A stretch of DNA of 64,000 bases from Candidatus Bathyarchaeia archaeon (GTDB lineage: Archaea > Thermoproteota > Bathyarchaeia > Bathyarchaeales > Bathycorpusculaceae), in contig JAVZNC010000005.1 in assembly GCA_038882955.1 (NCBI GenBank), positions 60,853 through 124,852 of the forward strand. Reading direction: 5' to 3'. A program made the position numbers and the translations under genes. The first letter of the stretch is position 1, and each line of letters begins with the position of its first letter. This document shows positions 4,046 through 57,414 of this stretch, in pieces. The notes beneath the pieces are model-generated. The model saw nothing but the letters and a program-made list of their open reading frames with translations, ran no database searches and had not been told where the DNA came from.

Positions 4046-4603
4046 GTGCGGTGCGAAGTCTGCGGACGCAAAATCCACGGAAAACCATACAACGTCATAA
4101 TTGAAGGCGCAAAACTGACAGTGTGCAGCGAATGCTCAAAACATGGAAAGCTAATTTTGGAAGAAGAAAAGCCGAAGGCGCCCATGCAAAAGATAATGCC
4201 CACAACGCCTAAAACAGCCACAACATTAAAAATGCAACAGAAAAGACCGCAAGAGACAAAGTTAGCTTCATTCGAACTTATTGAAGATTTCAACGTGAAA
4301 ATAAAGCAGGCAAGAGAAAAACTTGGATTGTCCCACAAGGATTTAGGCAAAAAATTGAACGAGAAAGTTTCTGTTTTAAGGAAAATCGAAACAGGCAAGA
4401 TGACTCCAGACGACATTCTCGCAAAAAAGCTGGAGCATGAGTTGAAAATTAAGCTGCTTGTTCCAGTTGCTGAAGAAACTGTTTCTCAAGCGAAAATTCC
4501 GAAACTGGAAAAGCGTGAACTAACATTGGGCGACATTATCCAACTTGGCAAAAAAGAGAAAGATGCGGAGAAGGGGGAAACTTCCGAACGAAAGCAATCA
4601 TAG
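4046..4603 (+). CDS. mbf1: Archaeal multiprotein bridging factor aMBF1 (Zn ribbon + HTH)
   Basis: CEVCG...VCSEC Zn ribbon, HTH IKQAREKLGLSHKDLGKKLNEK, LTLGD motif; GTG 4046 follows an AGGTG SD-like element. Confidence 0.93.
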   Translation: MRCEVCGRKIHGKPYNVIIEGAKLTVCSECSKHGKLILEEEKPKAPMQKIMPTTPKTATTLKMQQKRPQETKLASFELIEDFNVKIKQAREKLGLSHKDLGKKLNEKVSVLRKIETGKMTPDDILAKKLEHELKIKLLVPVAEETVSQAKIPKLEKRELTLGDIIQLGKKEKDAEKGETSERKQS

Positions 4604-5850
4604 TTCAACGCAGACGCCCAAATGAACCGTCAAGTCTAGAAGAACTCAAAAGCCTAGCAGAATCAGCGGGATACACCGTAGTCGGAAAAATTGAGCAAAT
4701 TAGGGAACCAGACTCGCGCTATCAAATAGGCGCTGGAAAAGTTAAGGAACTCGCCGAACTCGTAAAGGAAACCGGCGCCCAAAAAATAATTTTTGACAAC
4801 CAATTAAAGCCAGTGCAAGCATACAACATTGCAAAGGCAACGGGCGTCGAAGCCATAGACAGGTTTCAGCTAATCCTTGAAATTTTCACGAGAAGAGCCA
4901 CAACAACAGAAGCGAAACTGCAGATTCAATTGGCAAAACTGCAATACGAACTTGCACATGCAAAAGAGAGAGTAAGACTTGCAAAGATGGGAGAGCAGCC
5001 TGGCTTTATGGGACTTGGAGCCTACGAAGTTGACGTTTACTATGAGGCTGTTAAGAGGCAAGTTCACGCCATAAGGCGGAAGCTCAAGAAAATCCGTGGG
5101 AAAAGGCAATTGCACCGCGAAAGAAGAGCGGAACTTGGTTTTTCATCAATTTCTTTGGCTGGATACACAAACGCTGGAAAAAGCTCACTTTTTAACGCGC
5201 TAACAGAGGAGGATGTGCCAGTTGATACTGCACTGTTTACGACGCTGTCAACAACAACGCGGCTCGTGAAAATTGCTAGAAAAAAATTCTTGTTAACGGA
5301 TACCGTTGGCTTCATAGACCGCTTGTCACTGACGCTTATAGAGGCTTTCCATTCAACACTTGAAGAAACCATTTACGCAGACTTAATACTGCTTGTCGTT
5401 GACGTAAGCGAGCCAGTAAGCATGGTTGAAAAGAAGCTTAACGTGTGCCTAGAAACAATAGAACGCATAGGAGCGTCGGGAATTCCGCTAATTACTGCTT
5501 TAAACAAAATAGACCTTCTGCAAGAGGAAGAAATTAACTTGAGGCTGGAGGCAATAAAGGATAAGGCGCCAAACCCTATACCAACATCTGCGCTGCGTGG
5601 AACAAACATTGAACTGCTAAAACAGGCGATTATTAAGCAAATGCAGAACTACGTTAAAATGTCGTTCACAATACCATCAACAAACGAAACAATGCAGTTC
5701 ATATCATGGCTTTTCCAAAGAGCAGACGTGCAACACATAGAATATAATGGTGACTCAGCCCACATCATCTTAGAGGCAAACCCAAGCTTCGCGGAAAAAG
5801 TTAAAAATCAAGTGGAAAACTTTAATGGAAAAATCGAAAGAATCCGCTAG
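4588..5850 (+). CDS. hflX: GTPase HflX; start non-canonical (ACG 4588 proposed, ATA 4600 possible)
   Basis: GYTNAGKS, FTTL, DTVGF, NKID motifs. The frame is open from the stop at 4516-4518 and encodes the HflX N-terminus (KAIIVQRR...LEELKSLAESAGY...YQIGAGKVKEL...IIFDNQLKP) 75 codons before the first GTG at 4813. Confidence 0.93.
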   Translation, partial: TKAIIVQRRRPNEPSSLEELKSLAESAGYTVVGKIEQIREPDSRYQIGAGKVKELAELVKETGAQKIIFDNQLKPVQAYNIAKATGVEAIDRFQLILEIFTRRATTTEAKLQIQLAKLQYELAHAKERVRLAKMGEQPGFMGLGAYEVDVYYEAVKRQVHAIRRKLKKIRGKRQLHRERRAELGFSSISLAGYTNAGKSSLFNALTEEDVPVDTALFTTLSTTTRLVKIARKKFLLTDTVGFIDRLSLTLIEAFHSTLEETIYADLILLVVDVSEPVSMVEKKLNVCLETIERIGASGIPLITALNKIDLLQEEEINLRLEAIKDKAPNPIPTSALRGTNIELLKQAIIKQMQNYVKMSFTIPSTNETMQFISWLFQRADVQHIEYNGDSAHIILEANPSFAEKVKNQVENFNGKIERIR

Positions 5851-5860
5851 TGAAGATGCA

Positions 5861-6442
5861 ATGCCAAAAGTTTTCGTTTTAAGATGGGGACACAGACCAA
5901 AAAGAGACGCAAGACTCACAACCCACGTGGCGCTCACAGCCCGAGCACTAGGCGCAGATGGCTTCATACTATCAGACGTAGAAGACCAGAAAATCGCTGA
6001 AACAGTCAAAAAAGTTGTGGAAAACTGGGGTGGTCCATTCCATTTTGAAATGGGAACTCCGTGGCGAAAAGCCGTTGAAGAATGGAGGGCTAAAGGCGGA
6101 ACAGTGGTGCACTTAACAGCCTACGGTGAAAACATCCAAACAGGTGACGTGCTGCAAAGAATCAAAAACTCTGAAAAAGACATTCTGATAATCGTTGGAA
6201 GCCAAAAAGTTCCAGGCGAATTTTTCTCCAAAAAAGTTTCAGACTTCAACGTCGCCATAGGTAATCAACCGCACTCCGAATGCGCCAGCCTAGCCATTTT
6301 CCTCGACAGATTATTTGAAGGAAAAACATTGACTAAAAGTTTTGAAAACGCGAAGGTGCGAATAATCCCTCAAAAACGCGGGAAAAAAGTTTTGAGAGGC
6401 AACATAAAATCTGATTCCGATTCACAAAGAAATTTAAATTAA
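5861..6442 (+). CDS. trm56: tRNA (cytidine(56)-2'-O)-methyltransferase (SPOUT)
   Basis: LRWGHRPKRDARLTTHVALTARALGA, VHLTAYG, VGSQKVP, IGNQPHSE motifs. Confidence 0.95.
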   Translation: MPKVFVLRWGHRPKRDARLTTHVALTARALGADGFILSDVEDQKIAETVKKVVENWGGPFHFEMGTPWRKAVEEWRAKGGTVVHLTAYGENIQTGDVLQRIKNSEKDILIIVGSQKVPGEFFSKKVSDFNVAIGNQPHSECASLAIFLDRLFEGKTLTKSFENAKVRIIPQKRGKKVLRGNIKSDSDSQRNLN

Positions 6443-6445
6443 AGC

Positions 6446-6466
6446 TTTACAATATATATTATAAAA
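6446..6466 (+). promoter_or_regulatory. Putative TATA-box region upstream of tfe
   Basis: TTTACAATATATATTATAAAA about 40-55 nt before the tfe ATG; position and AT content only. Confidence 0.4.
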
Positions 6467-6503
6467 GAAGCATTTGTTCAACAATTAGGCAGAAGCGATT
6501 GTC

Positions 6504-7013
6504 ATGTCAGCAATAAACGAAGCCACACTAATAAAAGTTGCACAAGCGCTGGGCGAAGAGGAAGCCGTTAAACTAATCGAAATATTAAAGAATTCAGACG
6601 AAATAACGGACGACGAAATAGCCAACAAGACAGGAATAAGGCTAAACACTGTGCGCAAAATACTCTACAAGCTTTATGACCATTCACTTGTAAGCCTAAG
6701 GAGAACACGCGACCCAAAAACCGGATGGTTCATATTCCACTGGAAACTCCAGCCAAACCAGCTTGAAGGCTTTATACTGAGCCAAAAACGTCGTGTGCTG
6801 GAAAAATTGAACATAAGGCTGGAGTACGAGAAGAATCATGACTTCTACTATTGTTCAACAGTGGGATGCAGAAGAATACCGTTTGAAGAAGCTGTCGAGC
6901 TTGTTTTTCGCTGTCCAACATGTGGAAAACCGTTGATGTACTATGACAACGATAAAATAGTTGACGCCTTAACGAGGAAAGTTGAGCAGTTAAGGAAGGA
7001 ACTTGGTGAGTGA
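6504..7013 (+). CDS. tfe: Transcription factor E (TFE alpha)
   Basis: Winged helix TDDEIANKTGIRLNTVRKILYKL, TGWFIFHW, Zn ribbon YYC...FRCPTCG. Confidence 0.95.
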   Translation: MSAINEATLIKVAQALGEEEAVKLIEILKNSDEITDDEIANKTGIRLNTVRKILYKLYDHSLVSLRRTRDPKTGWFIFHWKLQPNQLEGFILSQKRRVLEKLNIRLEYEKNHDFYYCSTVGCRRIPFEEAVELVFRCPTCGKPLMYYDNDKIVDALTRKVEQLRKELGE

Positions 7014-7545
7014 AAAACTCCCGTCAAGAGAAGAGGCAATACAACTTCTCATCCAAGCTGGATGCTCAAACAAAGTTATAAGACACTGCGAGGCAGTGGC
7101 TGAACTAGCCCTGGAAATCGCAAAAACATGCAGAGAAAAAGGGTTAAACGTTGACCTTAATCTAGTGGAAATCGGCGCTTTACTTCATGATATTGGAAGA
7201 GCAAAAACCCACAGCGTCCACCACGCAGTAATAGGCGCAGAAATCGCAAAAGCGATGTCCCTTCCAGAACCAATAATAGCAATAATTAAGAGGCATGTGG
7301 GCGGTGGAATAACACCAAAAGAAGCGGAAAAACTCGGATGGCCAAAGGACATTTATGTTCCAAAAACTCTGGAAGAAAAAATTGTTGCCTACAGCGACAA
7401 ATTAATTGAGGGAGCCCAAAGGGTGCCAATAGAAAAAACCATAGAAAGTTTTTCGAAAAAATTGCCTAAAGCAGCTGTTATGCGTATACTAAAGTTGCAT
7501 GAGGAAATGACGCGTTTAATAGGCGACTGCAAGTGCCCACAATAA
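7003..7545 (+). CDS. HD-domain phosphohydrolase (TIGR00295-like)
   Basis: RHC..V, GALLHDIGR, HAVIGAEI, RHVGGG, EEKIVAYSDK. Confidence 0.9.
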   Translation: MVSEKLPSREEAIQLLIQAGCSNKVIRHCEAVAELALEIAKTCREKGLNVDLNLVEIGALLHDIGRAKTHSVHHAVIGAEIAKAMSLPEPIIAIIKRHVGGGITPKEAEKLGWPKDIYVPKTLEEKIVAYSDKLIEGAQRVPIEKTIESFSKKLPKAAVMRILKLHEEMTRLIGDCKCPQ

Positions 7546-8309
7546 CCCTAACCATAAAAACCTACAACAAAAGCCACCTCGAAGTTGTGGATGAATTCTT
7601 AAAACTAAAACTTAAGGGGTTAAATGTCAAAGTTCAAGTTTGTGGAACACGGAACAGCTGGGTTCAAGCATCAATTTCGGGCGAAGACGAAAACGTAGCC
7701 TTACGCTACATAAGCGAAGAAATAGGCGTATGCCCAAGCACCATCGAAGAAATCAGACGGTTTTCGACGCTAAAAGGATACATAGCAGCATTAAACAAAG
7801 ACCAAATAGTAATTGACATAGGAGTTTTTTTCCCACAAAAAACGGAAGCCACATTAACGCTTCAGCATCTACAGGCGCAATTGACTGATGGAAGAAAACT
7901 GGCACTTGCGAAACTGGCTGAACTGTATGGTTTTTGTGAGAACCTCCCATTAACAGTTAAAGCCCTAAACATAAAAGTGGAAGAGGGCATTGTAGAAACA
8001 ATATTTTCGGAAAGGCAGCTCAAAATTTATAAAGATTGGCTGAAATCGCTTCTTGACAGGCTGATAGTTCTTGGGGCAACGCGCGAAGAAATAATGTCCA
8101 GTTTAAAGATTGCACGGTGCCTACGAGACACGGTTGATGTTGAATCCTTGGGGCTTTTTGAAAACGCCGTAGCATGTAAGCTTGGGACGGATGCTGCTGG
8201 GCTGATTCCAAAAATTGGCAGACAACTTAATGCTGCAATCACGGTTTTTAGTCCAAGGAAGATTTTGGAATTTTTTGGGGAAAATATGCTGCTGGAAAAA
8301 TGGACATAA
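7533..8309 (+). CDS. DUF2110 family archaeal protein
   Basis: GEDENVA, LDRLIV, LGLFE...CKLGTDAAGLIPKIG; usual neighbour of tfe and the HD gene. Confidence 0.75.
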   Translation: MPTITLTIKTYNKSHLEVVDEFLKLKLKGLNVKVQVCGTRNSWVQASISGEDENVALRYISEEIGVCPSTIEEIRRFSTLKGYIAALNKDQIVIDIGVFFPQKTEATLTLQHLQAQLTDGRKLALAKLAELYGFCENLPLTVKALNIKVEEGIVETIFSERQLKIYKDWLKSLLDRLIVLGATREEIMSSLKIARCLRDTVDVESLGLFENAVACKLGTDAAGLIPKIGRQLNAAITVFSPRKILEFFGENMLLEKWT

Positions 8310-8315
8310 AGCAAT

Positions 8316-9158
8316 TTAACTTTGAAATCCCGTTAGCATTTCATGTATGGCTTTTCCAATGATTTCGCCGTTGTAGCCGCCTTCCAAAACAAAGAACGTG
8401 GGCTTCATTAAACCTTTGATGAGTTTGCCGATTTCTCTGTAAGCCTTTTCAGTTAAGCCAAGCGATGCAAGGTCTCCAGCATAAGCGTCAAAACCAGCTG
8501 AAACCGCAACCACCTCAAACTTGTTCGCATCAACTTTCCGCATGGCTTTAGCCAACGTTTCCAAGTAAACCTTTTCTCCGCAATCAGCTTGCAAAGGAAA
8601 GTTTAGGCAGTTGCCCTCAGAAAAGCTTCCAGTGCCAGGATAATGGGGGTATCTGTGGAGAGAAATGTACATCACATTTTTGTCTCCTTGGAAGATTTCT
8701 TGTGTTCCGTTTCCATGATGCCCGTCAATATCCAAGATTAAAGCTGGCTTGTCTAAGTTCTTGACGGCTATGGCTATATTGTTTAGGTAGCAGAAACCCC
8801 GTGTATAGGCGCCTAATGCCCTTCCGCTTTTTCCAGCGTGATGCCCAGGCGGTCTCATAAGCGAAAATCCATTAACTTTTGCTGCTAATATTGCGCCGCC
8901 AGCCGCAAGTCTCGCGTACTCGTAAATGTTTTCGTAGGCTGGTGTGTCCGCATCCTCGATGAATCCTTTTTTCAAGTTCCAAACGTATTCTGCGTCATGA
9001 ACTTTAAGGATTTCTTCTTCGGATGCTGGCTCGGGTTCTAGGAACGTGTAGCCTTTTGCTTTTAGAATTTCATAGGCTTTTCTAACTCTTTCTGGACTTT
9101 CGATATGCCAAGACCCGTAGCCGAGGCACTTTTCTGAAAAGATTATTTTTGTTTCCAT
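8316..9158 (-). CDS. Histone deacetylase / acetylpolyamine amidohydrolase family protein (compact, 280 aa)
   Basis: HIESPER, RPPGHHA, GFCYLNN, DIDGHHGNGTQ, SAGFD, LEGGY. Confidence 0.93.
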   Translation of the reverse strand: METKIIFSEKCLGYGSWHIESPERVRKAYEILKAKGYTFLEPEPASEEEILKVHDAEYVWNLKKGFIEDADTPAYENIYEYARLAAGGAILAAKVNGFSLMRPPGHHAGKSGRALGAYTRGFCYLNNIAIAVKNLDKPALILDIDGHHGNGTQEIFQGDKNVMYISLHRYPHYPGTGSFSEGNCLNFPLQADCGEKVYLETLAKAMRKVDANKFEVVAVSAGFDAYAGDLASLGLTEKAYREIGKLIKGLMKPTFFVLEGGYNGEIIGKAIHEMLTGFQS

Positions 9159-9242
9159 TTAACCGCGCCTACGTTGTGGTGTGCTGTTGCAAATTAAAAT
9201 ATAACCTCAACCCTAAAAGGTTTAAGAAAAGCCCTATAGCAA

Positions 9243-11207
9243 ATGGAGAAAGCCTTGATGGTTTCGGAAAGCCCGTTTGCCGACTTCCGCGCGGAATGCA
9301 AGAAGCTTTTAGAAGAAGCCTTGAAGAAGCGTTTTCCAGAGGTTGAAAAGCCAGTTTTAACGTTGGAAAAGCCGCCGAACATAGAGTTTGGACAGTTAGC
9401 ATCGTCGCTTTGTTTCGAGTTCGCCAAGAAAATCGGCGTAAAACCAGTTAAATTGGCTGAAAGTTTAATTGAGGCTATGGATAAGATGCAGTTTTCTCTT
9501 GTAGACAATGTTTCCCAAGCGGGCGGTGGCTACATAAACTTTCACGCGAATTTTGCAAAACTTTCAAGCTTAACCATCGAGTCGGCTATGCAACTTGACG
9601 CGGATTACGGTTTTGTTAAGGTTGAAAAGCCCTTAAAGATTATTGTTGAGCACACAAGCGTGAATCCTCTGCATCCAATACATATTGGGCAAGCCAGAAA
9701 CCCCATGCTTGGCGACGCCGTTGCGCGAATGTTGAAGGTGAGGGGACACACGGTTTTTCGCCATTACTACATTGACGATGTTGGAAGGCAAAGCGCCGTT
9801 ATCGCCTATGGGTACAAAAAGCTGGGTAAGCCTAAACCAGAGGGAAAGCCAGACCATTTTATTGGAAAAATCTACACTATAACCAGCTGCATAATTGAAA
9901 TAAACCGACTAAAAAGGGAGTTGGAGCGCGCAAAGGCTGTTTCTGCAGTGGACGAGATTGCGAGGATAAACAGGGAACTTGATGATTGGATGTCTGTGGC
10001 TGTGGAGCTTAAGGAAAAGTTTCCAGAACTGTTCGAAAAGCTTCTTGACAAAATAGGCGGGGATGAAGACCCAGAAGGCGAAGTTGCGGCGATTAACCAA
10101 GCTTACGAAGCGGGGGAGGAATGGGCTAAACAGCTTGTAAGAGAAGTTAGCGAGCTGTGCCTTCAAGGTTTTAGGGAGACTTTGAGCCGCGCAGATGTTT
10201 CTTATGATTCTTGGGATTGGGAAAGCGACTTCGTCTGGAGCAACAGAGTTTCCGAAGTCCTACAGAGGTTGAAGGCAACACCATACGTTTACAGAATTGG
10301 CGCAGTCTTGGAGTTTGATGCCGAAAAGGTTGTCCAAGACCTCAATTTAAAAGGGAAACTTGGATTGAGGGAAGACTATGAAGTTCCGCCACTGACCCTT
10401 GTGCGCGCCGACGGAACAACATTGTACACAACAAGGGATATGGCATACACTTTGTGGAAGTTTGAGAAGGCTGAAAAATGCATTAATGTCATAGGTATGG
10501 AGCAAAGCCTAGCGCAACTACAGCTGAAAATCGCGCTTTACGCTTTGGGCTATGGCAAACAAGCAGACAACCTCGTGCACTTCGCTTACAACCTTGTCTC
10601 TCTTCCAGGGTATAGAATGGCAAGCCGCAGGGGACGCTACATAACATTTGACGAAGTTGTAGACGAGGCTGTTGAAAGAGCTTACAGCGAAGTTTCTAAG
10701 CGTTCTCCACAACTTTCTGAAGCGGAGAAAAGGGAAATCGCAAATTTTGTTGGCATAGGTGCTGTGCGTTATGCCTTGGCGAGCGTTGACCCCTCAAAGC
10801 CGGTGGTTTTCACGTGGGACAAGGTGCTGAACTTTGAGAGAAACAGCGCGCCTTATCTACAGTATACACATGCAAGGGCATGTAGCATATTGCGGAAAGC
10901 CGCCAAAAAACCAGAGGAGCCATCATACGATTTATTGAAGGAAAAGATTGAGCGTGAAATAGTTTTGGATTTAGCAGTTTTTCCAGAAACTTTTATGGAA
11001 GCTGTAGAGCTTCTTAAGCCCAACATGATTGCGGATTTTGCGAATGCTTTGGCTGATAAGTTTAACACTTTTTACAATGCGCTGCCAGTGATAAAGGCTG
11101 AGCCTCAAGGGCTTAGCGATGCAAGGCTGGCGCTTGTTGACGCTGTTAGGATTGTGCTTAGAAACGCGCTTAACTTGATTGGTGTTGTTGCGCCAGAAAG
11201 AATGTAG
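9243..11207 (+). CDS. argS: Arginine--tRNA ligase
   Basis: EHTSVNPLHPIHIGQARN (HIGH-like), RADGTTLYTTRD, MASRRG, PYLQYTHARACSI, APERM end. Confidence 0.97.
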   Translation: MEKALMVSESPFADFRAECKKLLEEALKKRFPEVEKPVLTLEKPPNIEFGQLASSLCFEFAKKIGVKPVKLAESLIEAMDKMQFSLVDNVSQAGGGYINFHANFAKLSSLTIESAMQLDADYGFVKVEKPLKIIVEHTSVNPLHPIHIGQARNPMLGDAVARMLKVRGHTVFRHYYIDDVGRQSAVIAYGYKKLGKPKPEGKPDHFIGKIYTITSCIIEINRLKRELERAKAVSAVDEIARINRELDDWMSVAVELKEKFPELFEKLLDKIGGDEDPEGEVAAINQAYEAGEEWAKQLVREVSELCLQGFRETLSRADVSYDSWDWESDFVWSNRVSEVLQRLKATPYVYRIGAVLEFDAEKVVQDLNLKGKLGLREDYEVPPLTLVRADGTTLYTTRDMAYTLWKFEKAEKCINVIGMEQSLAQLQLKIALYALGYGKQADNLVHFAYNLVSLPGYRMASRRGRYITFDEVVDEAVERAYSEVSKRSPQLSEAEKREIANFVGIGAVRYALASVDPSKPVVFTWDKVLNFERNSAPYLQYTHARACSILRKAAKKPEEPSYDLLKEKIEREIVLDLAVFPETFMEAVELLKPNMIADFANALADKFNTFYNALPVIKAEPQGLSDARLALVDAVRIVLRNALNLIGVVAPERM

Positions 11208-11225
11208 AAAGCGTATAGTCCATGC

Positions 11226-11900
11226 TTATTGTGGAGCGCCCTTAATTATTGCAACGGCGGTGCTTGTTCCCAAGCGGTTGGCTCCAGCCTCAATCATGGC
11301 AACGGCATCAGCATAGGTTCTAATGCCACCAGCTGCCTTGACGCCCATCTCTTTTCCAACAACCTGCCGCATCAATTTAACGTCTTCAATGGTTGCGCCT
11401 TTGCCAAACAAGCCCGTAGAAGTTTTCGCAAAATCAGCTCCAACTTCCTTCACAATTTTGCATGCGGCAATCTTCTCTTCGTTTGTCAAACTTGGCGTTT
11501 CAATAATAACCTTAACAATGACATCTTTTGCGACGCGTTTCACGTCCACAACAGCCTTTATGTCTTGCTTGACAAGCTTGTAATCGCCAGATTTCAGCGC
11601 GCCAAGGTTTATCACCATGTCAAGTTCCTGTGCGCCATCCTCAACAGCCTTAATCGCCTCTAAAGCCTTTATTTCTGGCAGCGATGCGCCGAATGGGAAA
11701 CCAACGGTTGAGCACACTTTCACATCGGTGCCTTCAAGGATTTTTGCGGCGAGCTTCACGTAGCACGGGTTTACAACCACGCATCTAAAGCCGTATTTAA
11801 CAGAGTCTGCGCATAGTTGTTCAATTTCCTTTTTTGTGGCTGTAGCCTTGACATTCGTAGAATCAATAATTTTCGCTAATTTGCTTTTTGAAACTTGCAA
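11226..11900 (-). CDS. deoC: Deoxyribose-phosphate aldolase
   Basis: TVGFPFGA, ELDMVIN, KVIIET, KTSTG, KAAGGIR, RLGTS. Confidence 0.96.
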   Translation of the reverse strand: MQVSKSKLAKIIDSTNVKATATKKEIEQLCADSVKYGFRCVVVNPCYVKLAAKILEGTDVKVCSTVGFPFGASLPEIKALEAIKAVEDGAQELDMVINLGALKSGDYKLVKQDIKAVVDVKRVAKDVIVKVIIETPSLTNEEKIAACKIVKEVGADFAKTSTGLFGKGATIEDVKLMRQVVGKEMGVKAAGGIRTYADAVAMIEAGANRLGTSTAVAIIKGAPQ

Positions 11901-11915
11901 CTATGTTCGCCTCGC

Positions 11916-12962
11916 TTACCTTCCCTCAAAGTAAGCTTTTAGCCTTTCTGCAAAAACTTCGGGTTCTTCTACGGCTTCGCCGTCCCATAACAAGTACGGA
12001 AGCGCCCAAGCATCCGTGAAACACGTTTGCTGTATGCCAGCTCTGCTGATAATTCGGATGTTCACGTCGAAGTAATCCAAATGCACATTTACTGGTCCAG
12101 AAAGCAGTATGGCGTTAAAGCTAGTGTATCCTTCTTTATGGTAAAAGCTTAACACTTTCACCATTCCTTCGGCGATTCCACACCAATCCGCTTCTTCAAG
12201 CTCTAATAGGTTGGATTTACCTCTAACAATTGCTTGAACCTCGTTTAGTCCCCGTAAAGGCGCGAAGGGAACAAGCCACTCCACGCCATGCGCTTCGAAA
12301 ACGTGTCTTCCGCTCTTCTTTTCTGCTGAAACAAGGTCCTCCCAAAAGCTTAAATCATGTTTTTGATGGTACTCCATGCTTTTTTCCAGCATTAGCTGCA
12401 CGAGATAGAATGGTCTGTCTCTTGCCAAGACTTGCATGTGTGGATGAAAAATTGATGAGCCAGCGGGAGGCAGATAATTGAAGATTAATGTTGGAAAGCT
12501 TATCGATGGCTCCTTTTCCTTAAGCCTTCTTAAATAAACACATGCGCCTTTGAAGCCGTCGAGAAGCATTTTTGGCGCGAACTCGCTAAGCTGCAAGTAA
12601 TGTTCCCTCGACAAGACAACGAGAACGCTTCTTTCTGCATGCCCAAGAAGGTTTGGAACAGCAACAGCATCGCCGACGAAAATTCTTCCTTCTTCCAGAA
12701 AGTCTGGGTGAAACATCGGCGTCTTCGTTTTCACGTTTTCCGGGCAGAAGGGGCAGTTTGCCTTTGTCTTTTCTGCAAGAGCCTTGAGCTGTTCTTTGTC
12801 CGACGTTAGGAATCTGCTAATATAGTTCAACATCCCTCGAATTACCGTTGTGTTTCTCCCAGTGAGTGGGTCAGCCCTATACTCGAATGTTAACGTGTCC
12901 TCGGTAAAATTTTTTAAAGGGTTCAAAATTTTCGCGTGCTTAACAGTCTTTTCAAACTTCAT
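11916..12962 (-). CDS. GalT-like (HIT superfamily) nucleotidyltransferase
   Basis: R.DPLTG, CPFCP, NYLPPAGSSIFHPHMQ (HxHxQ catalytic motif). Confidence 0.85.
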   Translation of the reverse strand: MKFEKTVKHAKILNPLKNFTEDTLTFEYRADPLTGRNTTVIRGMLNYISRFLTSDKEQLKALAEKTKANCPFCPENVKTKTPMFHPDFLEEGRIFVGDAVAVPNLLGHAERSVLVVLSREHYLQLSEFAPKMLLDGFKGACVYLRRLKEKEPSISFPTLIFNYLPPAGSSIFHPHMQVLARDRPFYLVQLMLEKSMEYHQKHDLSFWEDLVSAEKKSGRHVFEAHGVEWLVPFAPLRGLNEVQAIVRGKSNLLELEEADWCGIAEGMVKVLSFYHKEGYTSFNAILLSGPVNVHLDYFDVNIRIISRAGIQQTCFTDAWALPYLLWDGEAVEEPEVFAERLKAYFEGR

Positions 12963-13164
12963 GGCAACTCACATCGCAATCTCTATTTTAGATGTGCAAG
13001 TTAATTGTTTTCGCCTCAAATGCCAATGCAAGTAACATCAAATTTAGGAAGTTTTCAATTGCTAAATTTTAGACCCTCTATCTATTTTTCGTCGTCGTCA
13101 AAACGCGTTTTTATTCCAGAAATTTATTATACTGGTGCATTAACCTAAAAGGAAGGCGATTAAA

Positions 13165-14226
13165 ATGACAAATGTATACTTTAAAAGAAAAGTTGAAGCC
13201 ATAGAAGTTAAGGAAAAAACCATATCCCAACTTTTGGCTGAAATGGCAAAAACAGCCTATCAAGGTAGAAAACTCGGAGAGGCTGTTGAAGTTTGGGAAG
13301 CTATGCTAAAAGAGAAGGATTTAACAATAATTATGGGTTTTGCGGGTTCGATGAGCACGGCGGGGCAATGGAAAATTGTGAACTGGCTTATAGAAAACCG
13401 CTTCATCGACGTTCTCGTTTCAACAGGTGCAAACGTTTCAGAAGACATTGTTGACGCGATGGGTTTCGGCTATTGGCAAGGTTCCCCATCCGTCAACGAC
13501 GCGGAATTGCTCAAGGCGGACATAAACAGGTACTATGACGTTTACGGGCGAGAAGCAGACTATAGGAAGATGGAAGAGCTGATGACGGAGTTTCTACTTA
13601 CGTTGAAGACGGACTTTACGTACTCTTCCATGGAGTTTCTACACTTGTTTGGCAAGTGGCTCAGCAAAAAGGGAATAAAGAGCATAGCCGCAGTAGCCGC
13701 GGAAAACAATGTGCCAATATTTTGTCCAGCAATTTCAGATAGCGCCTACGGCGAAGCGTTCTTGATGGCTAAAAACATGGGACACAAAATCCTATTAGAC
13801 CAGGTTAAGGAGTTCGACCAGTTCGTTGGAATAGGCGAGAAAGTGAAGGACATAGGCGTAGTTTACATAGGCGGCGGGGTCCCAAAAGACTTCACACAAC
13901 TAATTGCAATTTCAGTTTCGCCAAAAACCATGGACAAAGGCGTGCCTGGAAGAGAAGGCTACATGCGCAAATCCGTTAAAGAGTATTACTATCCACACAA
14001 ATACGCCATTCAAATAACCACTGATTCGCCGCAGTGGGGAGGCTTGTCCGGCTGCACGTTGGAAGAAGCCATAAGCTGGGGCAAAATTCACAGTGAAGGA
14101 AAACGCGTAACAGTGTACTGTGACGCGACGATTGCGCTGCCACTGATAGCACATGCACTGAACGAAAGGGTGAAAATAAAGCGTAAGGCGTCAGACCTTT
14201 CATGGCTTTTTAGCGAAATCACTTAA
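13165..14226 (+). CDS. Deoxyhypusine synthase-like protein, paralogue 1 (GGGVPKDF type)
   Basis: STGAN, INRYYDV, CPAISDS, IGGGVPKDF, GGLSGCTLEEAISWGK, DATIALPL. Confidence 0.92.
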   Translation: MTNVYFKRKVEAIEVKEKTISQLLAEMAKTAYQGRKLGEAVEVWEAMLKEKDLTIIMGFAGSMSTAGQWKIVNWLIENRFIDVLVSTGANVSEDIVDAMGFGYWQGSPSVNDAELLKADINRYYDVYGREADYRKMEELMTEFLLTLKTDFTYSSMEFLHLFGKWLSKKGIKSIAAVAAENNVPIFCPAISDSAYGEAFLMAKNMGHKILLDQVKEFDQFVGIGEKVKDIGVVYIGGGVPKDFTQLIAISVSPKTMDKGVPGREGYMRKSVKEYYYPHKYAIQITTDSPQWGGLSGCTLEEAISWGKIHSEGKRVTVYCDATIALPLIAHALNERVKIKRKASDLSWLFSEIT

Positions 14227-15161
14227 TCCTTCAACCTTGTTATTAACGCGCTCACCATTATTGGCAATATTATGGAGGCGTCGCCCTCAACCATTACGCG
14301 GCTAGCCCGCCTGTTTATTTTTCCCCATGAAACCGCCTCTCGCGGCTTTGCGCCAGAAAGGCTTCCATCCCACTCCACTGCAGTGCTGACGTAAACAGCA
14401 TAGTTCAGTCCTTCTCTGAACTGGTTCCACCAAAGCGTATGATGCTTTGATATGCCGCCGCCAATTATCAAGGCGCCAGTCTTCTTCGCCGTGAAAACAA
14501 TGTCGCTTAACTCTCCAGAATCCTTTAATAGGTTAATTCTGAAGTCGCGGTGTTCCTGCGAGAAAAGCCACAGTTGATAGCCCACAGCCCCGTCGGTTAT
14601 TCCAGGCACATATACGGGTATGTTGTTTTTGGCTGCCCAGTAGAGAATCGACGTTTCGTTGCATATGCGCTTCCCAATTTCATTGCACAGTTGCCTTGTC
14701 GAGATTTCTTTTACGTCTTCCCGCCACAAAGCATCAAGAAGCGTCTGCATTTTCTCCTCGATTATGGCGCCGTAGCTGCTGTTTGGAACGAGAACGTTGC
14801 CCAAACGGTTTACCCCGCCCTCTCGAAGTTTGGCATCATCCATCAAAAATGAGCCCTTGTAATAGTTTTTCCAGCACCTCGCAATGTCGTGGTCAAGGGT
14901 TCCACAGGTAGTAATTACAACGTCAACAAGCTTTCTTTGTACAAGCTCCTTCAGGGCTCCGCGTGTTCCAGTTGCCACGAGGTTTCCAGTAAAAGAAAGA
15001 AATTTGACGCAATTTTTCTCCCGCATCATCTTCTCGAGAATGCGCACTGCCACTGCTAGTTTGCCCGCGGTAAAACCCCAAGCCTTCTCCATCTGCAGAA
15101 CAAGCTCGTTAACAGACATTTTCTCAAAAAGGCGGTAATCTTCAACCGTTTCTTTACGCAT
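14223..15161 (-). CDS. dys: Deoxyhypusine synthase, paralogue 2 (canonical GGGISKHH type)
   Basis: FTGNLVATG, TTCGTLDHD, NRLGNV, PGITDG, IGGGISKHH, DGSLSGA.PREAVSWGK. Confidence 0.95.
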   Translation of the reverse strand: MRKETVEDYRLFEKMSVNELVLQMEKAWGFTAGKLAVAVRILEKMMREKNCVKFLSFTGNLVATGTRGALKELVQRKLVDVVITTCGTLDHDIARCWKNYYKGSFLMDDAKLREGGVNRLGNVLVPNSSYGAIIEEKMQTLLDALWREDVKEISTRQLCNEIGKRICNETSILYWAAKNNIPVYVPGITDGAVGYQLWLFSQEHRDFRINLLKDSGELSDIVFTAKKTGALIIGGGISKHHTLWWNQFREGLNYAVYVSTAVEWDGSLSGAKPREAVSWGKINRRASRVMVEGDASIILPIMVSALITRLKD

Positions 15162-15234
15162 GCCCTAATCCTCCAACGTTCAACGCGTACAATTTGTTGT
15201 TAAAGAATAAATAAATTGGCTTTTAAACCCCGCC

Positions 15235-16113
15235 CTAGTTAGTTAGATATGCGATTATTTTGCTGTAAATATCCTTATTTCTAAGGTCTTCATAACCAGC
15301 GTAGATGCTTGGATTATCGTTCACTTCAACCACGACAAAGTTGCCGTTGAACTCTTTAATGTCAACTCCATAAAGTCCATTGCCGACTAGAGCGCACGCC
15401 TTTAAGGCTGTTTCTTTAAGTTTTTCGGGCGCGTTTTCCCTTTTAAGCGAAACTGTTCTTCCCCAAACAAATGTTGGCTTGCCTCTCCTTTTTACGCCGT
15501 GTTTCCATCTGCCTTTTGGAACCATGTACTTGCAAACATATAAAACCTCATTGTTTAGGACGCCTACACGCCAGTCGAAGGCTGTTGGCATGAACTTCTG
15601 AACAACTAAAATGTCCGAGCGCCTAAAGAAGCGTTTGGCTACTTCTCTAAAACTTGTTTCGCATGCAACTTTCTCCACGTACCGCGAGAAACTCGTGTAA
15701 GGCGCCTTCAAAACGACTGGTCTCCCGAAAGCGTTGAAGATTTCCAGTATCTTTTTATGGTGAAACTCATCCTTGTTCAAGAAGATTGTTGGAATGTGCG
15801 GAACATCGTGTTTTTCGAACAGTTCGTATAGGTGAACCTTGTTTCCGCACACTTGTATCGACTTAGGGTCATCAACAACTTTCAAGCCGAGTTCCCAAGC
15901 TGTTTTTGAAACAACATAAGCCGTGTAAAGCGGGTCTGTTGTTGCCCTAATGAAAACAGCATCATACTTAGGAATTTCCGCAAGGTTTTCCCTAAAAACA
16001 AAGTTGAACCTATGCCCCATGCTCTCCGCTGTCAGCTTAAAGTTTTGGAGAGCCCCAACTTCCCTTGGGTCGGTGAAATTGTATCTTTCAACAAAGCAAG
16101 CTATATTACCCAA
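15235..16113 (-). CDS. RimK-family ATP-grasp ligase
   Basis: FIRATTDP, DDPKSI..CGNK, VLKAP, QKFMPTAFDWRVGVL, GLYGVDIK, EVNDNPSI. Confidence 0.92.
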   Translation of the reverse strand: MGNIACFVERYNFTDPREVGALQNFKLTAESMGHRFNFVFRENLAEIPKYDAVFIRATTDPLYTAYVVSKTAWELGLKVVDDPKSIQVCGNKVHLYELFEKHDVPHIPTIFLNKDEFHHKKILEIFNAFGRPVVLKAPYTSFSRYVEKVACETSFREVAKRFFRRSDILVVQKFMPTAFDWRVGVLNNEVLYVCKYMVPKGRWKHGVKRRGKPTFVWGRTVSLKRENAPEKLKETALKACALVGNGLYGVDIKEFNGNFVVVEVNDNPSIYAGYEDLRNKDIYSKIIAYLTN

Positions 16114-16798
16114 CTAGGCATTCACCATCTCCGAGAAGACGAGAAACTTCGCTACGCAGAAGCTTCAAGTCCAACTGCGTCAACTCATCCTTCCGTAATT
16201 GCTGGAGACCGCACAAAAAGGCTTCCCTTCCAACAAGCTGAACGTGTAACTTGCAAAGTGGAATCCTAAAGAGATTGTAAACTTTTTCCGCAATCTTCTG
16301 TGCTGGTTCTTTCACCTCGCATCTTCCAAAAATGGACTTGAACGAGACTATTTCGCCTAAAAGTGGCTGCGCACAAACAGCAAACTTGTAGTTCATACTC
16401 AAACTTTTGACAGCCTTATAGAGGGCATTTCTGTTCTTCGCGGTTCTAAAACCTTCAAAAGAGAATGGATTTACTGCAAAAACAACCACTGGAAAGTCAA
16501 AGTTTGGCATTATCTGTTTAACAGAGTCCGTAACAACAAATGGCATCGTTGGAATCCCAACTTTTGAAGCGCGCAACAGCAGTATAGGCGTCCTATAAGC
16601 GTCAATAATGTTCTCTGTGGATGGGATGACGCGGTTCCCCAAAACTTCAGCATGCAGAGAAACATAGTATCCAGTCTTCAAATAGCGGTAGTCATTGTTA
16701 ATGTTGAGAGTAAAATCTTTAATCGAAGATTCAAGAAAGGCTGAAGGTTTCATTGTCGGCGTTTCTAAAGTTAGGTCGATGTTTGAGACGACCAACAC
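16106..16798 (-). CDS. RLAN (RimK-like ATP-grasp N-terminal) domain protein
   Basis: NNDYRYLKTGYYVSLHAEVLGNRVIP matches the RLAN motif; overlaps the downstream ATP-grasp gene. Confidence 0.85.
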   Translation of the reverse strand: MLVVSNIDLTLETPTMKPSAFLESSIKDFTLNINNDYRYLKTGYYVSLHAEVLGNRVIPSTENIIDAYRTPILLLRASKVGIPTMPFVVTDSVKQIMPNFDFPVVVFAVNPFSFEGFRTAKNRNALYKAVKSLSMNYKFAVCAQPLLGEIVSFKSIFGRCEVKEPAQKIAEKVYNLFRIPLCKLHVQLVGREAFLCGLQQLRKDELTQLDLKLLRSEVSRLLGDGECLVG

Positions 16799-16926
16799 CC
16801 ATGTAACACCAGATGATTAAAACCTCGGTATTGCATCAGTAATATTTAAAATTAACTACGCGCTTTGCAGTTGCGCTTTTATATATGAGCCAGAAACCAG
16901 AATATTAAGCGGTAGGAAGAGGAGCA

Positions 16927-18120
16927 ATAACGTACAAAACCCTAGAAGTTCTAGGTCCAGAACACGAGTACGCCATTGTCAACGAGGAATTAAAAGCTCT
17001 GCCAATCGTTGACAAGATTATAAAGGATTTCAAGGGACGCATCGTAAACTTCGTCGAGCAAACCAGCTTCACTTTTGGAAAGGAACTTCAAATGCACGTT
17101 TTGGAGCTTAAACCAAACGAGCCCTTCGAATCGCCAATAGACTTTGAAGAAACAATGCAAAATGCCGTTTTAACACTAACAGAATTTCTTGAACACAAAT
17201 ACAAGGCAAACCTTCTAGGAACTGGAATGCATCCAACGCTTAGACTTGAGGAAACTGGCGTTTGGCCGCACCGTCACAGACAAATTTACCACTTTTACGG
17301 CAAAGTCTTCAACCTAAAACAGCACGGTTGGCTTAACATCCAAAGCTTCCAACTCAACCTACCCTATGCGAACGAAAAAGACGCAATCCAAATACATAAC
17401 ACACTGGCGGAAATCTGCGCTTATCTCCCAGCAGTCGCTGCTTCATCCCCAATATACGAGGGAAAAATCGGGGAGTATGTTGACAATCGCCTACACTTTT
17501 ACATGCTCAATCAGAAAGAGGTGCCATCAGTCACAGGCAATGTTATCCCAGAATACATCACCTCGTTTAAACAGTACAAAACAGAGATTATAGGACGCTA
17601 TTCGAACGACTTAATCAAGGCTGGCGTGAAAGATTGCCTACCCTACAAGGACTGGGTAAACTCCAGAGGTGCAATCTTTAGATTTGACAGAAAAGCCATA
17701 GAAATCCGCGTCATGGACGAACAGGAATGCATCAAATCCGATGTTGCATTAAGCTGCTTTGTAAGGACCGCCCTTAAGGGGATTATTAAAGAGAATAGGG
17801 CGCTCATACCGCGAGAAACGCTAATCAAAGATTTTAACTCTGTAGTGCGAGAGGGCTTAAACGCGAAGGTTACGCATCCTTTTGGGCGGACAGCCCGCCA
17901 AGTATGCAAGCGTCTCCTGAAAATTGCTTGGGAAAATGCCTCGGAAGAAGAGCGCAAATATCTTTCATTTGTGGAGAAAAGAATTGAGTGCGGAAGTCTC
18001 TCCGAACTCATTAGAAGCCATGTAATGCAGAGAGCGCAGAAAACCGACTTAAAAGAAGCCATAACAAGCGTCTACTCAAAACTTATAAAAAACCTCGTAA
18101 ACAATGAACCATACTCCTAA
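16927..18120 (+). CDS. Glutamate--cysteine ligase (GCS2) family carboxylate-amine ligase; start non-canonical (ATA 16927 or ACG 16930)
   Basis: The frame is open from the TAA at 16906 and encodes YKTLEVLGPEHEYAIVNEEL...GKELQMHVLEL. Also TGMHP, HGWLNIQSFQLN, ASSPI, DNRL, NSRGAIFRFDRKAIEIRVMD. The first ATG (17092) lies downstream of the conserved GxExE motif. Confidence 0.9.
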   Translation: MTYKTLEVLGPEHEYAIVNEELKALPIVDKIIKDFKGRIVNFVEQTSFTFGKELQMHVLELKPNEPFESPIDFEETMQNAVLTLTEFLEHKYKANLLGTGMHPTLRLEETGVWPHRHRQIYHFYGKVFNLKQHGWLNIQSFQLNLPYANEKDAIQIHNTLAEICAYLPAVAASSPIYEGKIGEYVDNRLHFYMLNQKEVPSVTGNVIPEYITSFKQYKTEIIGRYSNDLIKAGVKDCLPYKDWVNSRGAIFRFDRKAIEIRVMDEQECIKSDVALSCFVRTALKGIIKENRALIPRETLIKDFNSVVREGLNAKVTHPFGRTARQVCKRLLKIAWENASEEERKYLSFVEKRIECGSLSELIRSHVMQRAQKTDLKEAITSVYSKLIKNLVNNEPYS

Positions 18121-18129
18121 TAGAAAGGG

Positions 18130-18730: not shown

Positions 18731-18831
18731 CGGGCCCGAGGGGATTTGAACCCCTGTTCTCCGGCTCCGGAGGCTTGCGCACCTTTCGAGTTTTTGGTTC
18801 GGCGCCTTAATCCATACTGGGCTACGGGCCC
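18731..18831 (-). tRNA. tRNA-Arg(CCG) with a 25-nt intron at position 29/30 (intron 18775-18799)
   Basis: Reverse complement folds as acceptor GGGCCCG/CGGGCCC, T arm AGGGG-TTCAAAT-CCCCT, anticodon arm CCG^GC-CTCCGGA-GCCGG; BHB with central helix GCGC/GCGC and bulges CG^A and AA^G. Confidence 0.95.
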
Positions 18832-55661: not shown

Positions 55662-55753
55662 GGGCCGGTCGTCTAGCCTGGTTAGGACACCCGCAAAAGC
55701 CTGAAGCAGCCCTTACGAGGCTGAGGTCGCCGGTTCAACTCCGGCCCGGCCCA
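55662..55753 (+). tRNA. tRNA-Val(TAC) with a 17-nt intron at position 25/26 (intron 55689-55705)
   Basis: Acceptor GGGCCGG/CCGGCCC, D stem GTCT/GGAC, anticodon arm CAGCC-CTTACGA-GGCTG, T arm GCCGG-TTCAACT-CCGGC; BHB central helix TAGG/CCTG with bulges AC^A and AA^G. Confidence 0.93.
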
Positions 55754-55905
55754 CTCGAGAACTTTTTCATTCCAAAAAGAGACTTAGTTTTTCAGCTTCT
55801 AAAATTCGGAAGAGTTTAAGTTAGCCTAAAAACATTACCGCCTGGCTCTTAAAGATAGAGACAATTAGGGAAAGGGTTCATACGAAAATTGTGAAGTGGT
55901 TTCTG

Positions 55906-56139
55906 TCAATGTTTCAATAACGATATAAAGGCTACAGCCAAGAAAGCCACGCCAGCCAAGAAAAGGCTGCCGGTGAGAAACCATACAACGGCTGCGATTA
56001 TGGCGGCGGGGAGGATGAATAGCAAAATTTTGACGATCAACATAATGATGGCAATTCCTATGATAAGCAAAAATAGAAGCAAAACTAGCTCATAAATAGA
56101 AGGAAGTTGAAAAGGCAATGTGGACAACGAACCAATCAA
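55906..56139 (-). CDS. Small hydrophobic membrane protein
   Basis: 77 aa, almost entirely hydrophobic; GGTG SD-like element upstream. Confidence 0.7.
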   Translation of the reverse strand: MIGSLSTLPFQLPSIYELVLLLFLLIIGIAIIMLIVKILLFILPAAIIAAVVWFLTGSLFLAGVAFLAVAFISLLKH

Positions 56140-56635
56140 GTTTTGAACACCACTTATGAATAAGCGAATACTATTTTTAAAGCAATCGCATCCATGCCAA
56201 CTTCAATTTTGTTTTTAGGCATCCCGTATAACCCTCTTTTGGCACCTCCCCCACTTCTTTATACTCTTCACATAATATTTTGCAACTTGAGCTTTAAAGA
56301 GGTCGCGTAAAATTAACCATGCTGAAATGGCAATGTTATATTCATTGCGAATCTCACATAAACTTTAAACATTCGCAGCAATAAGGCAGTTCAGTTAATT
56401 GCAACTAACGGAACATTAGGTGAAGATGTTGGATGCACTCTTATGTGTGAAACTTTGAGCATTTCTGATAAAATTTAAATCTTGCCGTTTGTTTCCATGA
56501 GTGCAATAAAGAGCAGGTATAACTTCATGTTTCGCGTGTGCTACAAAGCGTATGTGTTGTCGTAGCACTTGGTTAAAGAAGGTGGTTTAAGCGCAAGGGG
56601 TGAAGCATAATTATCGGGTTTAAGGAGGTAAGCCT

Positions 56636-56965
56636 ATGATTATTGAGCTGGCTGTTGCCTTTGTTTTGATTCTGGCTGTATCGTCTACAATTTATTTGCT
56701 TGGGCGTTTGTTGTCCGCTAAATCTGTGTGTAGTGAAAATGGTAAATCTGCTTATGCTTGTGGTGAGAAGGTGAATTTTGGTAAATTGAAAATCAGCGTT
56801 TCTCATTATAGATACCTCATATACTTTGTGATTTTGGACTCGTCGGTGCTGTTGATGGCTTTTGCTGCATTGGCTATTCGCATGGCAAATGTTTTGTTCT
56901 TCGTAATTTACTTATTCATTGTTATTTTGTCTGGCTTGTTGCTTTTAGATGGAGGCGATAGTTAA
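56636..56965 (+). CDS. NuoA-like membrane subunit of the hydrogenase complex
   Basis: Three TM segments, AYACGE loop, YLIYFVILD; AGGAGG SD. Confidence 0.85.
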   Translation: MIIELAVAFVLILAVSSTIYLLGRLLSAKSVCSENGKSAYACGEKVNFGKLKISVSHYRYLIYFVILDSSVLLMAFAALAIRMANVLFFVIYLFIVILSGLLLLDGGDS

Positions 56966-57414
56966 CGAGAAGAGCCAGCCTTTTAAAGTGGGCGAGGCTA
57001 AAATCACCTTGGGTTCTTCATTTTAATTCTGGGGCATGCAACGCTTGCGATATTGAAGTTGTTGCACTTTTAACGCCCAGATATGATGTTGAACGTTTTG
57101 GAATATTACTTGAACCTTCGCCAAGACATGCTGATGTTCTATTAACCACTGGTGCTGCCACCCGCCAATGTGCGGATAGGTTGAGGCGTATTTATGAGCA
57201 GATGCCTGAGCCGAAATTTGTTGTTGCCATAGGTGCTTGTGCTTGTTCAGGCGGAGTTTTTGAAGGAAATTACAATGTAATTGGCGGCGTTGATAAGGTC
57301 ATTCCAGTTAACGTTTACATTCCGGGCTGTCCACCGAAGCCAGAGGCGATAATTGACGGCATTTTAAAACTGCTTAATTCAATTAAGGAGGCAAGGCATG
57401 TCGATAAACATTAA
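56965..57414 (+). CDS. Group 4 [NiFe]-hydrogenase small subunit (NuoB-like); start non-canonical (ACG 56965 proposed)
   Basis: After the in-frame TAG at 56959: LTRRASLLKWARLKSPWVLHFNSGACNACDIE...SPRHADVL..TG...GACACSGG...IPGCPPKPE. The ORF-track start (57181) omits the CxxC ligands. Confidence 0.92.
   Translation, partial: TRRASLLKWARLKSPWVLHFNSGACNACDIEVVALLTPRYDVERFGILLEPSPRHADVLLTTGAATRQCADRLRRIYEQMPEPKFVVAIGACACSGGVFEGNYNVIGGVDKVIPVNVYIPGCPPKPEAIIDGILKLLNSIKEARHVDKH

Follow-up and report, generated by a model that had tools for sequence, protein, structure and literature searches.

The 64,000-nt window analysed here (positions 60853-124852 of contig C5) belongs to genome G000, a 1.54-Mb metagenome-assembled genome (MAG) of the Bathyarchaeia that consists of 31 contigs and is 95.6% complete. 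The window encodes an HflX GTPase (hflX), a GCS2-family carboxylate-amine ligase (GCS2) and the small subunit of a hydrogenase. The reading frames of the three genes lack a canonical start codon, which in this study means ATG, GTG or TTG, over a long stretch that follows an in-frame stop codon, and each of them has an ACG codon behind a Shine-Dalgarno (SD)-like tract. A fourth gene, which encodes topoisomerase IB on contig C4 of the same genome, has an ACG one codon past a stop and emerged from a genome-wide look at start-less open reading frames (ORFs). Comparison with related genomes indicates that ACG is probably the working translation start of all four genes.

Start-less reading frames in the window

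The three sites of the window had been singled out by an earlier reading of the DNA (the sequence-only reading), which described an upstream in-frame stop, a long start-less frame, an SD-like tract and ACG for each gene. All of these elements are present (Table 1). The hflX frame opens after TGA at 4516-4518, the GCS2 frame opens at 16909, and the small-subunit frame reads TAG (56959-56961), TTA and then ACG. The next canonical start is located 75 codons downstream of ACG in hflX, 54 codons downstream in GCS2 and 72 codons downstream in the small-subunit gene, where it is TTG. SD motifs at 391 confident ATG genes of G000 lie 5-12 nt upstream of the start, and the SD-ACG spacings of hflX (10 nt), GCS2 (5 nt) and the small-subunit gene (9 nt) fall within this range.

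The skipped N-terminal sequences had also been regarded as conserved and functionally needed. In agreement with this view, Pfam domains begin within the start-less stretches of all three genes. Counted from the upstream stop, GTP-bdg_N spans residues 38-123 of the hflX product, GCS2 (PF04107; E = 3e-33, 115.8 bits against a cut-off of 21) begins at residue 52 of the ligase, and Oxidored_q6 covers residues 26-137 of the small subunit. The hflX product contains GTP-bdg_N (E = 1e-27), GTP-bdg_M (1.4e-16) and MMR_HSR1 (9e-20) in this order, which places it among the HflX GTPases. The small-subunit gene adjoins the gene of a NuoD-like large subunit with a NiFe-hydrogenase match, and the operon is thus assigned to a group-4 [NiFe] hydrogenase; an Oxidored_q6 protein encoded beside a NuoD-like subunit is its predicted small subunit. 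Given that a domain-encoding stretch without a canonical start is preceded by an ACG and an SD that are kept in relatives, as described below, we infer that translation starts at ACG.

Table 1. Features of the three loci in the window (window coordinates)
Feature	Position	Strand	Basis
aMBF1-like gene, cistron preceding hflX	4034..4603	+	ORF; Pfam HTH_3 match
SD-like GGGGG, 10 nt before hflX ACG	4573..4577	+	sequence; GGAGG in most relatives
hflX coding sequence, 420 codons + stop	4588..5850	+	ORF; Pfam GTP-bdg_N, GTP-bdg_M, MMR_HSR1
hflX inferred start ACG	4588..4590	+	conserved column in relatives; outgroup TTG/GTG/ATG there
TATA-like box TTTTATATAT, ~45 nt before GCS2 ACG	16877..16886	+	sequence; promoter role inferred
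SD-like GAGGAG, 5 nt before GCS2 ACG	16919..16924	+	sequence
GCS2-family carboxylate-amine ligase coding sequence	16930..18120	+	ORF; Pfam GCS2 match
GCS2 inferred start ACG	16930..16932	+	conserved column in relatives
NuoA-like membrane subunit, probable ATG 56636	56624..56965	+	ORF; Pfam Oxidored_q4
SD GGAGG, 9 nt before small-subunit ACG	56951..56955	+	sequence; GGAGG/AGGAGG equally placed in relatives
NuoB-like small subunit, group-4 [NiFe] hydrogenase	56965..57414	+	ORF; Pfam Oxidored_q6 E = 7e-34
small-subunit inferred start ACG	56965..56967	+	comparison of 19 loci
fused NuoC/NuoD-like large subunit, normal ATG	57398..58987	+	Pfam Complex1_30kDa, Complex1_49kDa, NiFeSe_Hases

The start column of hflX

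The start column of hflX was compared in relatives of increasing distance. Of 25 loci that belong to the genus, family and order of G000, 23 have ACG in the column, one has ACA directly behind CTG and one has ACC directly behind ATA. Among 80 public Bathyarchaeia loci, 76 have ACG, two have ATG behind the same SD, and two have ACA behind CTG. Only one of the 76 ACG loci contains a canonical start upstream within the open frame, and an in-frame stop immediately precedes ACG in nine of the 80. Further genomes have ACG in the same family (5/5) and the same order (6/7, with ACT in the remaining one). ACG is absent from the five genomes of other orders of the class, in which TTG or ATG occupies the column or GTG is found three codons upstream. 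It is likewise absent from 23 genomes of other classes of the phylum, about nine of which are unclear or misaligned and most of which have TTG, GTG or ATG in the column or a few codons upstream. The alignment of orthologues, which the sequence-only reading had recommended, therefore places the canonical starts of outgroup hflX genes in the ACG column. Because ACG is confined to one order and the outgroups start in the same column, the hflX ACG is a derived state of that order at the exact position of the outgroup start codon.

In a different family of the phylum, the hflX genes of four loci (L243, L244, L245 and L247 from G165, G149, G126 and G171, respectively) have no obvious ATG, GTG or TTG in the start column. 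The column contains AGA, ACT or AGG behind GGTGGTG-like motifs, and odd hflX starts may extend beyond the ACG order.

The wide occurrence of the hflX codon bears on the simplest explanation, in which the ACG codons would be sequencing or assembly errors or would belong to decaying pseudogenes. G000 is a MAG of 31 contigs, and a frameshift does seem to be present in a LeuA-like gene of another contig (see below). However, the same ACG occurs in MAGs from many studies and habitats, including hot springs, peat, soil and sediments, and the coding sequences after ACG are intact and conserved. The probability of this explanation is practically negligible. Three independent assembly errors, which had already been considered unlikely, are excluded by the maintenance of ACG across many independent assemblies. 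Contigs of four DNA runs were also compared with positions 4000-18000 of the window, a stretch that contains two of the three sites; no difference was seen at 4589 or 16931 among the 40 differences listed, beyond which there are 1078 more, and we draw nothing from this comparison.

Is the hflX ACG a start codon or an ordinary Thr codon? ACG accounts for 21.5% of the Thr codons of G000, and it nevertheless occupies column 1 in 76 of the 80 loci. The codons that follow vary in the manner of a protein-coding sequence. Codon 2 alternates between Lys and Arg, codon 3 encodes Ala through four synonymous codons (GCA 35, GCC 27, GCG 8 and GCT 5), and codons 6-8 are likewise synonymously variable. Such constraint on all three bases of ACG beside synonymously varying neighbours was found for both hflX and GCS2. 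The third base (G) of the hflX ACG is thus constrained and does not behave as a free Thr third position. Moreover, because codons 2 and 3 evolve as protein, they are translated, and translation must start at or before them rather than at a downstream ATH codon (ATA, ATT or ATC; these codons and CTG are the further starts of NCBI translation table 11).

The SD of hflX is conserved too. Ahead of the coding sequence, only the SD columns (GG.GG) and ACG form invariant blocks in the 25-sequence alignment, and no consensus RNA structure was found around the start (0 pairs). The spacing between SD and ACG is 10 nt in 56 of the 80 loci and 7 nt in 19. Upstream of hflX, an MBF1 homologue directly precedes the gene on the same strand in all 80 loci. 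The most frequent overlap between the mbf1 stop and the hflX start is 16 nt (40 loci), followed by 1 nt in the form TAACG (25 loci) and 13 nt (six loci), and nine loci have other arrangements. In the window, the TAG of the aMBF1-like gene (4601-4603) lies 13 nt past the hflX ACG, which results in a 16-nt overlap.

The start column of GCS2

The GCS2 ACG is found in 14 of 16 loci of relatives, and the two remaining, more distant loci have ATG close by. A public set of 80 loci, 79 of which are readable, has ACG in 74 (72 plus two after register correction), ATG in four and GTG in one, all in the same column. No canonical start is present upstream in the open frame in 48 of the 72 ACG loci. In 26 of the 79 loci, the region from codon -8 (or the upstream stop) to codon +7 is devoid of ATG, GTG, TTG, CTG and ATH, and any other start-codon offset is shared by at most 20 of the 79. 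Codon 2 varies synonymously between TAC (43) and TAT (34), and AAGAGG-type motifs are located approximately 8-9 nt upstream of the start in related loci. ATA at 16927, the codon preceding ACG, had been named as an alternative start; it is not conserved, given that relatives have ACC, GCT, GCC, AAT, AAC, GTT, TGT, CGC or GGT at this position. GCS2 is the cleanest case, in which ACG is the sole conserved start candidate.

The TATA-like tract of Table 1 and a divergent gene upstream suggest that GCS2 is the first cistron of its transcript. TTATAT-like tracts are also present upstream of GCS2 in relatives, and the position of the TATA-like box would imply that the SD lies in a short leader. Two ORFs that resemble ATP-grasp ligases and are divergently oriented flank GCS2 (listed regions 15235-16816 on the minus strand and 18124-18681 on the plus strand), and a Cys-rich ORF (CGECKISCC...) follows it.

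The counts for hflX and GCS2 also bear on C-to-U mRNA editing, which would convert ACG to AUG as in plant organelles and leave initiation itself canonical. ACG differs from ATG by exactly such a change, and the TAACG overlap would become TAATG. Messenger RNA editing of this kind is not known in archaea. The DYW-type deaminase family (PF14432) has no match in G000, although 14 control genomes are equally silent, and the 25-sequence hflX alignment contains no conserved upstream element besides the SD that could act as a recognition site. Editing also leads one to expect a frequent genomic T in relatives. This expectation does not hold, since ATG is found in two of 80 hflX loci and four of 79 GCS2 loci, and the near-absence of genomic ATG argues against editing that merely repairs the codon. 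We therefore consider editing unlikely.

The hydrogenase small subunit and topoisomerase IB

In the hydrogenase operon, the TAA stop of the NuoA-like gene (56963-56965) shares its last A with the ACG of the small-subunit gene. This TAACG overlap, which is also present in G011, G002, G026 and G005, corresponds to the stop-start overlap TAATG of classical operons, and G014 has ATG exactly in the ACG column as TAATG. Across 19 small-subunit loci, ACG is the sole candidate in six or seven, stands beside a canonical start in three and is replaced by canonical starts only (ATG, TTG or GTG) in nine. The sole-ACG loci are those of the window, G011, G002, G026, G005, a second copy in G029, and that of G030, where ATA is possible too. 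The topoisomerase IB gene behaves in a similar manner, with ACG in six of 12 loci, ATG or GTG one codon away in five and an unclear start in one. Thus, the small-subunit and topoisomerase IB genes exchange ACG with ATG, TTG or GTG in or next to the start column among relatives.

The overlaps raise the question of whether a start codon is needed at all. Ribosomes could shift frame from the upstream cistron and produce MBF1-HflX and NuoA-NuoB fusions, given that both hflX and the small-subunit gene overlap the 3' end of a cistron that is read in a different frame. However, no cistron of this kind precedes GCS2, the open small-subunit frame extends only one codon upstream of ACG, and a stop directly precedes ACG in nine of the 80 hflX loci. 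Furthermore, the overlap length is variable (1, 13, 16 nt and others), and no conserved slippery site is present. Frameshifting is highly improbable.

Observations that weigh against initiation at ACG

Several observations weigh against the assignment of ACG as the start. First, the hflX ACG is not absolute, because the column contains ACA in two loci and ACC or ACT in one. Second, ATH codons are located nearby, at hflX position +3 in 67 and at position +4 in 75 of the 80 loci, and the database protein for the window hflX begins with MVQRRR, that is, at ATA 4600. Third, ACG is a poor start in bacteria and yeast. In yeast, ACG starts reach less than 1% of AUG, and a review gives an efficiency of approximately 0.4-0.5% of AUG for CYC7 (PMC4705826). 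Such an efficiency would be hard to square with the stoichiometric need for a hydrogenase subunit unless coupling helps.

The fourth point concerns the genome as a whole. Codons 5-12 nt behind an SD that are followed by at least 10 start-less, coding-like codons were tabulated in G000, as the sequence-only reading had advised. This crude table contains no excess of ACG, which occupies two of 68 positions against nine for ATC. Likewise, in the comparison of G000 with its relative G011, there are 4 and 7 cases in which ACG aligns with the first canonical start of the other genome, as against 5 and 6 for ACA and 6 and 6 for ACT. The sequence-only reading had named the lack of a genome-wide excess of ACG or ATA as an outcome that would refute its proposal. 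This rule is too strict, given that the signal resides in conservation at individual genes.

The second point leads to a rival explanation, a start at a nearby table-11 codon (ATA, ATC, ATT or CTG), with ATA 4600 as the hflX start and ACG as a mere upstream or Thr codon. The ATH codons at +3 or +4 in most hflX loci and the MVQRRR N-terminus of the database entry agree with this explanation, and other genes of G000 seem to use ATC, ATT or ATA. However, it does not account for the fixed third base of ACG or for the protein-like evolution of hflX codons 2 and 3. The hflX ATA is located 22 nt from the SD, as against the usual 5-12 nt, and where an outgroup has TTG or ATG in the ACG column, the ATA at +4 is an internal Ile codon. 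ATA 4600, which had been named earlier as an alternative start, is thus an old internal Ile codon. In GCS2, the 26 loci without any table-11 start within eight codons and the lack of a widely shared offset point in the same direction. We judge a start at a nearby table-11 codon to be quite unlikely.

Frequency of ACG starts in the genome

How common are ACG starts in G000? At least four of approximately 1,200 genes would start with ACG, and three of them lie inside this window. Their clustering is attributable to chance or linkage; hflX and GCS2 are 12 kb apart in G003 and 45 kb apart in G011. G000 contains 127 ORFs of at least 150 codons with at least 30 start-less codons, only a handful of which are coding-like in both the stretch and the body, and GCS2 ranks first by coding score among that handful. 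When the ORFs of G000 were compared with the 1.46-Mb main contig of G011, 1195 gene pairs were obtained. In 68 of these pairs, the homologous region begins at least eight codons ahead of the first canonical start on both sides of the comparison. ACG is found only in hflX, GCS2 and the small-subunit gene among these 68, which also include a few cases of ATC, ATT or ATA and otherwise consist of shadow frames or conserved leaders. A stricter screen of the two genomes, which required ACG opposite ACG with an SD, missed hflX and GCS2 because their alignments extended upstream. The G000 genes for cofE, scpB and 3-hydroxyacyl-CoA dehydrogenase were examined individually and begin with ordinary start codons.

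These comparisons suggest that ACG starts are rare and gene-specific in G000. The proposal that the organism initiates at near-cognate codons is consequently supported for the genes described here, in which the ACG column is conserved and coincides with outgroup starts, but not as a genome-wide habit. For these genes, near-cognate initiation is the best reading of the sequence comparisons.

Other candidate starts in G000

Other genes of G000 have unusual start regions. Two paralogous 163-aa genes without a Pfam match (C19:5935-6426 and C2:72889-73380, both on the plus strand) begin with ICP(V/A)LYVPNVSVKVEI at ATC and ATT, which are located 7 nt behind GTGGGGA and GTGAGGA, respectively. A canonical start is lacking within 13-18 codons, and the same column contains ATT in G011; the paralogues are likely to be ATH-started. 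Three further plus-strand genes are candidates for non-ATG starts of table 11. C1:253716-255257, whose product we take to resemble amidophosphoribosyltransferase by its IGCGVF N-terminus, has ATA GGG TGC behind GGGGAGGA. A TauE-family permease gene (C1:49244-50062) has ATC behind GAGGTG (ATC behind GGAGG in G011), and a 169-aa gene (C10:4881-5390) has ATC and 43 start-less codons.

Two minus-strand genes differ from these candidates. C22:2833-4383, which presumably encodes a 2-isopropylmalate or homocitrate synthase (LeuA-like) by its FDTTLRDGEQ motif, contains 100 conserved-looking codons without a canonical start, and shortly before them is an ATG that is displaced from the frame by one base (ATGA GGT ATC). 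This gene looks like the product of a one-base frameshift or an assembly indel rather than a case of an ACG start. An 88-codon ORF of C1 (27423-27689), which we take from PPKLTRFERARIV to encode RNA polymerase subunit K, has ACG 10 nt behind GGAGA in G000 and likewise in G011. Its start is ambiguous because TTG is located eight codons downstream.

Discussion

What could decode ACG as a start? ARAGORN identifies 46 tRNAs in G000, and the main contig of G011 yields 39. Among these, initiator features, namely an A1:U72 pair and three G-C pairs in the anticodon stem adjacent to the loop, are confined to the tRNA with the anticodon CAU. A dedicated mechanism, either an initiator-like tRNA with a CGU anticodon or a tRNA-Thr that would provide a Thr N-terminus, would fit the strict third-position G as well as near-cognate pairing with CAU does. 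However, only the CAU tRNA is initiator-like among the tRNAs of these two incomplete MAGs, and the tRNA with the CGU anticodon has the acceptor stem of tRNA-Thr(UGU), which marks it as an ordinary elongator. A dedicated tRNA is accordingly very unlikely. The initiation factor aIF1 (SUI1) was found in 29 of 31 genomes, which rules out its loss as the cause. In addition, two tRNA genes of the window itself (55662-55753 on the plus strand and 18731-18831 on the minus strand) have Rfam matches and are detected by ARAGORN only when introns are allowed and not by default; they are probably intron-bearing archaeal tRNAs.

We propose that the four genes use near-cognate initiation of the following kind. 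An SD located 5-10 nt upstream would place the small ribosomal subunit on ACG, and the ordinary initiator Met-tRNA (CAU) would pair with ACG through one mismatch at the middle position. The protein would begin with Met, and its yield would probably be lower than that from ATG. In hflX and the small-subunit gene, ACG is located in or against the end of the upstream cistron, and terminating ribosomes would probably feed the weak start through translational coupling. Such coupling would not be a general requirement, given that GCS2 is the first gene of its transcript and has a promoter-like tract of its own. Why would a weak start be retained? ACG has hardly ever reverted to ATG in relatives, although one transition suffices, which argues that the weak start is itself selected and that selection may keep it weak.

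The linkage of mbf1 and hflX in all 80 loci suggests that two ribosome-rescue factors are expressed at a fixed or regulated ratio. As a tentative extension, and one that we regard as possible rather than probable, ACG might be a genuine fourth archaeal start that is read by the normal initiator tRNA with aIF1 and aIF2 and is kept weak. In the mbf1-hflX pair, it would then set the amount of HflX per ribosome that finishes aMBF1 or make this amount stress-responsive. If so, it would be an archaeal counterpart of the AUU feedback of infC and a prokaryotic precedent for near-cognate control in eukaryotes. The combination of an SD, ACG and a coupled upstream cistron also constitutes a simple testable system.

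Comparison with known systems

A full-text literature search, which did not extend to subscription journals, found no paper that describes ACG starts in archaea. No mention of ACG was found in the available portion of a review on recoding in archaea (PMC8211752), and ACG appears solely as a Thr codon in the available portion of a preprint (bioRxiv 2026.09.13.751334). According to the review cited above for yeast, archaea use AUG, GUG and UUG as starts, Sulfolobus aIF1 rejects AUU, and IF3 and aIF1 both discriminate against AUU (PMC4705826). The new elements of the present study are the order-wide hflX ACG with mbf1 coupling, the GCS2 case, and the turnover between ACG and ATG, TTG or GTG at the small-subunit and topoisomerase IB genes.

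The ACG starts resemble the alternative starts of table 11 in being rare non-ATG starts behind an SD, and G000 also contains ATC, ATT and ATA candidates. However, table 11 does not include ACG, which therefore cannot be called by annotation pipelines, and common gene finders are not known to permit it. As a consequence, the proteins are miscalled in databases. At least five different N-termini occur among the public entries of this hflX orthologue group, with lengths of 346, 397, 403, 407, 415-421 and 438-457 aa, and some entries are truncated and have lost the N-terminal domain.

In plant organelles, ACG is edited to AUG at the starts of genes such as ndhD and psbL. The Bathyarchaeia genes share with them a genomic ACG in the start position of conserved genes. 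They differ in that no editing machinery was found in G000, where the DYW search was silent as it was in the control genomes, and in that genomic ATG is rare in relatives.

Bacterial infC, which encodes IF3, has an AUU start codon. In both infC and hflX, a non-standard start has long been conserved in a gene whose product acts on the ribosome, and this likeness suggests a possible feedback through initiation fidelity. The two systems differ in the codon, with ACG lying outside table 11, in the domain of life and in the fidelity factor, which is aIF1 in archaea. In addition, ACG would also start the genes of a ligase, a hydrogenase subunit and a topoisomerase, and autoregulation could be proposed for hflX by analogy only.

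The closest parallel is provided by eukaryotes and their viruses, in which ACG starts are established, for example, in VP2 of adeno-associated virus and the C' protein of Sendai virus. In both settings, ACG replaces AUG and is presumably read by the normal initiator Met-tRNA with factors of the same kind (aIF1/eIF1 and aIF2/eIF2), and the start is likely to be weak or regulated. The archaeal genes differ in that an SD on a polycistronic mRNA, rather than scanning, would position the ribosome. Moreover, ACG would be the only start of housekeeping genes and not an alternative start for an isoform, and it is kept across a whole order. A start codon with a middle mismatch that has been kept through the history of an archaeal order would indicate that archaeal initiation tolerates and exploits near-cognate codons, as eukaryotic initiation does.

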